From: Eledone cirrhosa
Taxonomy: Eukaryota
Assembly: GCA_964016885.1 (NCBI GenBank)
Contig: CAXHJY010000372.1
Span: forward strand, 16,124-80,123
DNA: 64,000 nucleotides
Reading direction: 5' to 3'
The translations under genes were made by a program, and so were the position numbers. How positions within the stretch are numbered: position 1 is the first letter of the stretch; every line of letters begins with the position of its first letter. The notes below the pieces were generated by a model, which was not told where the DNA came from, ran no database searches, and was given only the letters and a program-made list of their open reading frames with translations. Below are positions 55,342 to 56,353 of the stretch, one piece after another.

Positions 55342-55364
55342 GTAAATATATATATTTTTTTTAT

Positions 55365-56345
55365 TTACTCTATATACTATTGTATTTTCACAGTAAAGGC
55401 TTTACCTCACATAATATCTCACATAACATTTACATTACTCTATATATACTATTGTATTTTCACAGTAAAGGCTTTACCTCACATAATATCTCACATAACA
55501 TTTACATTACTCTATATATACTATTGTATTTTCACAGTAAAGGCTTTACCTCACATAATATTTACATTACTCTATATATACTATTGTATTTTCACAGTAA
55601 ATGCTTTACCTCACATAATATCTCACATAACATTTACATTACTCTATATATACTATTGTATTTTCACAGTAAAGGCTTTACCTCACATAATATTTACATT
55701 ACTCTATATATACTATTGTATTTTCACAGTAAATGCTTTACCTCACATAATATCTCACATAACATTTACATTACTCTATATATACTATTGTATTTTCACA
55801 GTAAAGGCTTTACCTCACATAATATCTCACATAACATTTACATTACTCTATATATATTATTGTATTTTCACAGTAAAGTCTTTACCTCACATAATATCTC
55901 ACATAACATTTACATTACTCTATATATACTATTGTATTTTCACAGTAAAGGCTTTACCTCACATAATATCTCACATAACATTTACATTACTCTATATATA
56001 CTATTGTATTGTCACAGTAAAGGCTTTACCTCACATAATATCTCACATAACATTTACATTACTCTATATATACTATTGTATTTTCACAGTAAAGGCTTTA
56101 CCTCACATAATATCTCACATAACATTTACATTACTCTATATATACTATTGTATTTTCACAGTAAAGGCTTTACCTCACATAATATTTACATTACTCTATA
56201 TATACTATTGTATTTTCACAGTAAAGGCTTTACCTCACATAATATCTCACATAACATTTACATTACTCTATATATACTATTATATTTTCACAGTAAAGGC
56301 TTTACCTCACATAATACCTCACATAACATTTACATTACTCTATAT
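55365..56345 (+). repeat. 72-bp (and 60-bp variant) tandem array, 14 units, derived from the MITE internal repeat, filling HES intron 2
   Basis: Unit TTTACATTACTCTATATATACTATTGTATTTTCACAGTAAAGGCTTTACCTCACATAATATCTCACATAACA (11 long, 3 short). The same unit occurs at 5397-5610 and 33338-33560. Confidence 0.95.
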
Positions 56346-56353
56346 TTATCCAG

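Follow-up and report, generated by a model that had tools for sequence, protein, structure and literature searches.

A MITE-derived tandem array carrying acceptor look-alikes in intron 2 of a HES gene of Eledone cirrhosa

The second intron of a hairy/HES gene in Eledone cirrhosa consists almost wholly of a tandem repeat, each unit of which holds an acceptor-like AG followed directly by a stop codon in the phase of the preceding exon. HES proteins are dose-sensitive repressors of the Notch pathway, and the question raised by the locus is whether the repeat governs the output of the gene or is simply passed over by the spliceosome. A sequence-only reading of the window (the whole stretch of 64,000 nucleotides analyzed here) had proposed poison splice sites whose copy number acts as a rheostat, or else a special mechanism that silences them. 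Our analysis neither supported nor refuted these proposals; AG and TAA were found to travel together with a transposon. The reading we favor, at a probability of about 0.75, is that the array is real, derives from a transposon, and most likely holds passive pseudo-acceptors that the spliceosome skips.

The HES gene and the age of its second intron

The host gene was identified as hairy/HES by Pfam HLH and Hairy_orange matches and by a WRPW motif near the C-terminus (Table 1). Its best relative was protein P0001 of Octopus bimaculoides, at 71% over exon 4. Exon 2 was matched to the same protein by tblastn, its span being exactly covered by a contig of the RNA-like run X1 described below, and the P0001 sequence is continuous across the exon 2-exon 3 junction. 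The exon 2 donor is weak (6/9 consensus matches) and that of exon 3 is strong (8/9). An exon 1 region was found twice, 31-34 kb upstream of exon 2; the two copies are identical over 223 nt, and each then runs into different repeats. This doubling is either a recent duplication or a leftover haplotype in the assembly, and both copies are candidate first exons.

Table 1. Positions of HES gene parts, the intron 2 array, and related repeats within the window
Feature	Position	Strand	Remarks
MITE copy A, whole	5383..5751	+	369 nt, flanked by TTAA on both sides, inverted repeats with CCCT ends, 3 units in tandem
HES exon 1 region, copy 1	21175..21397	+	coding 21324-21368, phase-0 donor 21369; tblastn with molluscan HES N-termini
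Minisatellite, 45-nt unit x 12.7	21954-22526		near or in intron 1; TRF, repeated CAGs
HES exon 1 region, copy 2	23734..23956	+	coding 23883-23927, phase-0 donor 23928; tblastn
Minisatellite, 77-nt unit x 4	23950-24259		near or in intron 1; TRF, repeated CAGs
MITE copy B	33323..33698	+	376 nt, inside HES intron 1, sense strand; 87% to copy A
Minisatellite, 44-nt unit x 15.4	34505-35180		in intron 1; TRF, repeated CAGs
HES exon 2	55246..55341	+	96 nt; basic region plus helix 1; phase 0 at its end; Pfam HLH 4-28
Intron 2	55342..56353	+	1,012 nt, GT..AG, between exons 2 and 3
Host 5' part of intron 2	55342..55375	+	ends in an 11-nt word (55365-55375) common to the unit
MITE-derived array, 14 units of 72 or 60 nt	55371..56345	+	the 11-nt word recurs at its right end (56335-56345)
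Final 8 nt of intron 2, outside the repeat	56346..56353	+	true acceptor CAG/G; homologous junction in P0001
HES exon 3	56354..56441	+	88 nt, loop and helix 2; Pfam HLH 32-53; tblastn
HES exon 4	57261..58456	+	Orange domain, low-complexity tail, WRPWAY stop; Pfam Hairy_orange E 5e-14
Inverted right-end MITE-family fragment	58514..58588	-	blastn 80-85% over 70 nt

The position of intron 2 was compared in 80 HES-like loci from metagenome contigs, of which 24 were interrupted, 24 were contiguous, and 32 lacked one motif. All 24 interrupted loci, several of them near duplicates, have a GT..AG intron at the same codon, with lengths of 59-2,546 nt; intron 2 is therefore ancient and was not created by the repeat. 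An introner, that is, a new intron made by a transposon, was rejected on the same ground. A search of Rfam returned no match in 55200-58700.

Two features of the gene are recorded here in their own right. The protein ends in WRPWAY (58436-58456), two residues beyond the usual terminal WRPW; P0001 of O. bimaculoides ends in the same way, and WRPW is terminal in the five other relatives compared. The added AY may alter the binding of Groucho. Inside intron 1, a degenerate CCCTAA/CCTAAA telomere-like run was seen at 39765-39912.

A repeat array derived from a TTAA-flanked MITE

TRF assigned the array (55371-56345) a period of 72 and 14.0 copies. Eleven units of 72 nt and three of 60 nt add up to 972 nt, from which one TA is missing at the left join; this bears out the earlier estimate of some 970 repetitive nucleotides among 1,012. 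The sequence CACAG/TAA is present in 14/14 units, as had been counted, at ten spacings of 72 and three of 60. The G of the decoy AG lies at 55393, 55465, 55537, 55597, 55669, 55729, 55801, 55873, 55945, 56017 (a TTGT variant), 56089, 56161, 56221, and 56293, the first decoy being only 52 nt from the exon 2 donor. The true AG had been placed at the end of the last repeat unit; this needs correction, because the repeat ends at 56345 and the last 8 nt of the intron are unlike the unit. There are 26 internal AGs in intron 2, a second AG following 5 nt after the decoy (TAAAG) in 12 units, and all 14 units contain a GT donor look-alike whose G is that of the decoy AG.

Thirteen whole units are 0-2 bases away from the commonest unit, so that the 14 sites are not independent, AG with TAA counts as a single event, and the array looks young. 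Variants are ordered along the array, and a 60+72-nt pair with a shared variant has been duplicated. Among 20,000 base-shuffled units, such an acceptor arose in 25% and an acceptor with an immediate stop in 1.9%.

The proposed transposon origin held up, since the unit matches MITE copies elsewhere in the window. It recurs at 5395-5609 and 33336-33500, in each case directly behind the left end of an element of 369-376 nt. The arms of copy A (5383-5405 and 5729-5751) are 83% complementary with CCCT ends, and its units have 1-2 mismatches to the commonest intron 2 unit. Copy B has two intact units and a diverged one (2.3 units), with TTAA at its left end only and a worn right end. The intact units of the two copies lie 1-3 bases from the commonest intron unit, and 5/5 carry AG+TAA. 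In an extract of the defining paper (PMC2872659), piggyBac/TTAA MITEs are flanked on each side by TTAA, and their inverted repeats of 12-19 bp terminate in CC[C/T]T. The source element has the traits of this class, namely TTAA ends, CCCT inverted repeats, small size, and high copy. The array in intron 2 has neither terminal repeats nor TTAA at its ends, and its length corresponds to a whole number of units (972 nt minus one TA); it is MITE-derived and not itself a MITE.

The one inverted piece of the family within the gene (58514-58588) matches the right end of the element and not the unit, and masking or editing by an inverted copy was rejected on that basis. This fragment begins about 60 nt past the HES stop codon; the first AATAAA is found only at 61088.

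Four of the seven sequencing runs listed in an exon 4 search (X1, X2, X3, and X5) were compared over 55025-55460, which covers exon 2, the left join, and the first unit. X2 and X3 come from one DNA sample, perhaps the assembly's own, and X5 consists of RAD reads from another study. In X2 and X3 the summed unit depth was 1.4-4.1 million against 2.9 and 5.9 on the unique flank, a ratio of about 10^5-10^6 that is not to be read as a copy number. X5 gave no depth on the unique part of the interval. Where its reads had loose ends (1,402 and 3,713 among 7,620), the terminal repeat preceded the unit, and TTAA stood ahead of the terminal repeat; in a further 177 reads, with 30 starts, the sequence steps back by 72 nt, which means that the unit occurs in tandem elsewhere too. 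The MITE family is very large. In the RNA-like run X1 the summed depth of the unit was 200,000-550,000, and the family thus appears to be widely transcribed from other places. Zero matches to the MITE motif were obtained among the metagenome contigs, and the literature matches listed included no paper on the MITE or the intron; the family may be catalogued in Repbase or Dfam, which lay outside the search.

The family varies at the decoy AG itself. G was read at 55392 in 956/2,270 X5 reads and T at 55391 in 933/2,269, and at 55391-55392 TG stands in for CA in about 42% of the X5 reads and, by depth, in 22% of X2/X3. From these bases, the mirror proportions of CA and TG look like a decayed CpG, in which case the decay would have produced the acceptor incidentally.

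The same 11-nt word stands at both ends of the array and also within the unit, and the whole-unit span between the two words fits copying at microhomology followed by slippage. A unit would have been copied into the old intron at the word common to host and unit, and the array would then have grown by slippage or unequal exchange. The leftover host intron is only 42 nt, below all 24 homologues (minimum 59) and, according to an extract of PMC12081236, below the theoretical minimum of 62 nt for human introns. Host bases were thus probably lost, as a simple capture model would require. Insertion of a whole MITE that later lost both ends is a possible alternative origin, at about one in three.

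Arrays of this general kind are not confined to intron 2. Three minisatellites lie near or in intron 1 (Table 1), and SINE-like repeats dispersed in the window account for the 77-mer and for part of the 45-mer; arrays made from pieces of mobile elements are routine in the Eledone cirrhosa genome. The route is a known one, with Xstir and miDNA4 as examples in extracts of PMC12628747 and PMC6004289. The closest structural likeness is to the Xenopus Xmix/Xstir system, a TTAA MITE with an internal segment that has been amplified in tandem, described in the same extracts as occurring in single units, in composites with short internal arrays, and in free arrays without ends. Here too, copies A and B hold 3 and 2.3 units, 14 are free in intron 2, and both single and tandem forms occur in reads. 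As far as those extracts go, Xmix differs in having AGGRR ends of the Kolobok type where the Eledone element has CCCT ends of the piggyBac type, and in Eledone the free array accounts for 96% of one intron and extends into the acceptor region of that intron. Coral CMITEs share the TTAA ends, the 12-19-bp inverted repeats with CC[C/T]T, the small non-coding form, and the high copy; their arrays in the extract of PMC2872659 are of whole elements, whereas the Eledone array repeats a 72-nt left-end segment only.

Because the unit is extremely abundant in reads, we considered that reads of a high-copy repeat might have been wrongly joined into a short intron, so that the array, or its length, would be an assembly error. 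Reads cover the left join alone, and the identical duplicated exon 1 lies in the same gene. The left join is nevertheless real in the reads of one sample: X2 and X3 each contain a 372-nt contig that extends from intron 1 across exon 2 and on into the first unit; it shows 0 differences and is unbroken where an empty allele would branch (depth 2.9 and 5.9). The ordered variants among the units, including the duplicated 60+72 pair, and the tandem units in the reads of another study likewise speak against misassembly, which we regard as very improbable.

Acceptor look-alikes and the joining of exon 2

The decoys had been judged at least as good as the true acceptor. This stood for the pyrimidine tract, which scores 11/16 at the true site and at 13/14 decoys, but not for the +1 base, which is G at the true site and T at the decoys. 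The true site is itself weak, since 19/24 homologues have more than 11/16 pyrimidines. By a crude acceptor score, built on the author's approximate weights and not on a trained splice model, decoys reach 3.2 and the true site 2.8 when the +1 term is left out, so the gap between true site and decoy is wholly due to that term. The true acceptor of exon 4 also has T at +1.

With yUnAy as the branch-point motif, the true AG has candidates at -33 and -22, both within the repeat, and a decoy has one, at -34; the last unit ends 12 nt early, which places two candidates in range of the true AG. The typical branch-point distance is 19-37 nt in an extract of PMC10078293, and the acceptor consensus is YAG/G in that of PMC12081236. 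The surroundings downstream differ as well: behind the true AG lies an exon of 42% GC with an 8/9 donor 88 nt on, and behind a decoy lies repeat of 25% GC with a 5-6/9 donor 59-71 nt on. The last decoy would give a normal-sized exon of 148 nt with exon 3's own donor.

How unusual the decoys are was judged against other introns. Intron 1 (31,318 nt, phase 0) contains 641 YAGs, 68 of them with an equal tract, and 6 of these 68 have an immediate phase-0 stop; a phase-0 stop within 10 codons follows 49% of 633 YAGs. Good-tract YAGs number 13 per kb in intron 2 against 0-5.8 (median 2.4) in 11 homologous introns of at least 700 nt, a set that includes several near-duplicate loci, and all YAGs number 14 per kb against 15.6-38 in the homologous introns of that length. 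The density of good-tract sites is unusual, and the kind of site is not. In mammals, pseudo-sites outnumber real ones tenfold (extract of PMC5578058).

Run X1 bears on whether the decoys are used. It has no RNA label on record (the exon 4 search listed seven runs, none of them on record as RNA) and comes from one sample with a code different from that of the DNA. It behaves as RNA, and we took it as RNA-like because its depth was 0 over 55025-55234 and its contig was confined to exon 2. One contig of 1,288 nt and depth 16.7 aligned to 55246-55342 only, its last base being the G common to the start of intron 2 and the start of exon 3. This contig leaves the genomic sequence at the exon 2 donor without entering the repeat. 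The bins over 55250-55339 all stood at exactly 16.7, so that the end of exon 2 is present in no further contig, whether joined to a decoy or retaining the intron, and none of the 15 joints listed out of 23 connects that end (55341) to the repeat, with another 247 loose ends unlisted; these figures are for contigs, which drop rare forms, with NMD active and from an animal that may be without the array. The 187 nt upstream in the contig fit the 194-nt exon-1 block, and, provided that exons 3 and 4 come next, the 1,004 nt downstream would reach to 58177, which lies within the CAG run of exon 4. X1 holds 0.80 of the words of exon 4. The contig would thus read exon 1+2+3+4, with exon 3 deduced from the length fit.

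Both this contig, which skips the repeat, and the same-grade look-alikes common throughout the 31-kb intron 1 fail to favor the poison reading. In the mechanism that we infer, the last AG would be defined by exon 3, which has G at +1 and, 88 nt further on, a strong donor, and the decoys would be skipped; the array itself would now supply the branch point for the true AG. Under the rules of NMD, transcripts from rare slips to a decoy, with their stop directly behind helix 1, would likely be removed as noise. Low-level decoy use hidden by NMD is possible.

Similar situations are known. Consensus-like but unused AGs upstream of a real acceptor have been described as pseudo splice sites or pseudo-exons, and the choice among sites is attributed to branch-point distance, YAG/G, and exon context (extracts of PMC5578058 and PMC12081236). 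Relative to the pseudo-sites in those extracts, Eledone has 14 near-identical copies at fixed spacing and a real site whose probable branch point is drawn from the same repeat. The locus is an example of two known things, MITEs that seed minisatellites and splicing that ignores acceptor look-alikes, and it offers a natural test bed in a cephalopod in which the roles of the +1 base, branch-point distance, and the downstream exon are isolated.

Recursive splice sites, as commonly understood, were considered as another class for the decoys and rejected, since the decoy AG is followed by TA, and the GT overlaps the G of the AG rather than following it. In a recursive site the AG is directly followed by GT and the donor is remade (compare the extract of PMC13196383).

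Copy number, RNA pairing, and intron retention as alternatives

A copy-number rheostat would require that decoys be used, or that exon 3 be skipped with a frameshift, and that the products be lost to NMD or yield a stub of basic region and helix 1, the number of units thereby tuning HES. It was correctly foreseen that decoy use would put TAA right after ...MKKE: the stop is in phase 0 at 14/14 decoys. AG+TAA is, however, inherited from the MITE. The decoy tract equals that of the weak true site, and the 13 good-tract sites per kb exceed all 11 long homologous introns; on the other hand, the frame is open both in the retained intron and from the second AG, 5 nt beyond the decoy. That X1 offers no further contig for the end of exon 2 counts against the rheostat, although NMD would hide its products from steady-state contigs.

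The closest precedent cuts both ways. The VNTR in intron 18 of ABCA7 is, like the Eledone array, an intronic tandem repeat with a splice site per unit whose use leads to a premature stop (extract of PMC5954066). There, exon skipping rose with VNTR length, while use of the repeat-borne site was about 2% and unchanged with length, as given in that extract. ABCA7 involves donor sites, length polymorphism, and length-dependent skipping of exon 19; Eledone has acceptors, and one sample at the locus. By this analogy, a copy-number effect is possible, and exon 3 skipping would be its likelier route than the decoys. The array works like a minisatellite of the Xstir type, born of a MITE and bearing pseudo-acceptors, and its nearest functional precedent is the ABCA7 VNTR. 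We consider the rheostat unlikely, and equally so its fuller form, in which a transposon fragment took over the branch point and the share of HES pre-mRNA that is lost, through exon 3 skipping or through 13 usable acceptors coupled to a stop, is set by copy number. Should output vary with the number of units, this would be transposon-built repeat-length control of a developmental repressor and of real interest.

A 13-nt palindrome starts at each decoy G (55393-55405 in unit 1) and is a feature of the left end of the MITE. It raised the alternative that the decoys are dangerous but self-silenced, the palindrome pairing with that of the next unit and hiding both the acceptor and the donor look-alike. 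Neighboring units were predicted to form a 12-bp helix, and at 37 C the predicted unpaired probability was 0.01-0.08 for the decoy G against 0.72-0.79 for the true AG; stems can mask 3' splice sites in yeast (extract of PMC3239191). The predicted fold is weak, however, with z -1.6, 11 and 14 of 200 shuffles being as good, and z -0.95 for four units. The controls also failed: the genuine acceptors of exon 2 and exon 4 came out at 0.01-0.02, 53% of the 68 comparable intron 1 YAGs score 0.1 or less, the used exon 2 donor is likewise predicted to be paired, and at 15 C the predicted pairing extends to the true G (0.12). Odd and even unit numbers gave no difference in silico. RNA structure was dropped as evidence of silencing once these pairing controls had failed, and self-silencing by predicted pairing is, in our estimate, distinctly improbable.

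Retention of intron 2 would have the opposite effect from a stop-laden design. The intron is open in phase with exon 2 for 337 codons, encoding a hydrophobic 24-residue repeat, and the first stop (56392-56394) falls within exon 3, which continues for 47 nt before its junction with exon 4. A retention isoform carrying the 337-residue repeat could therefore escape junction-dependent NMD and be the working product of the locus. The openness, though, goes back to a single open unit present in 14 copies: the unit is open in two frames out of three, the second AG (12 units) enters the same open frame, and two or more open frames occurred in 7% of shuffled units. No X1 contig crosses the exon 2 donor, the repeat matched no Pfam family at cut-off, and no relative was found among 8,000 scored candidates of 185-590 residues. 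The peptide is taken for chance, and we hold a functional retention isoform to be highly improbable.

A further AG was observed downstream of the array. It lies in frame at 57224, has a good tract, and precedes the exon 4 acceptor by 36 nt, so that its use adds 12 residues; it is bypassed in the O. bimaculoides protein.
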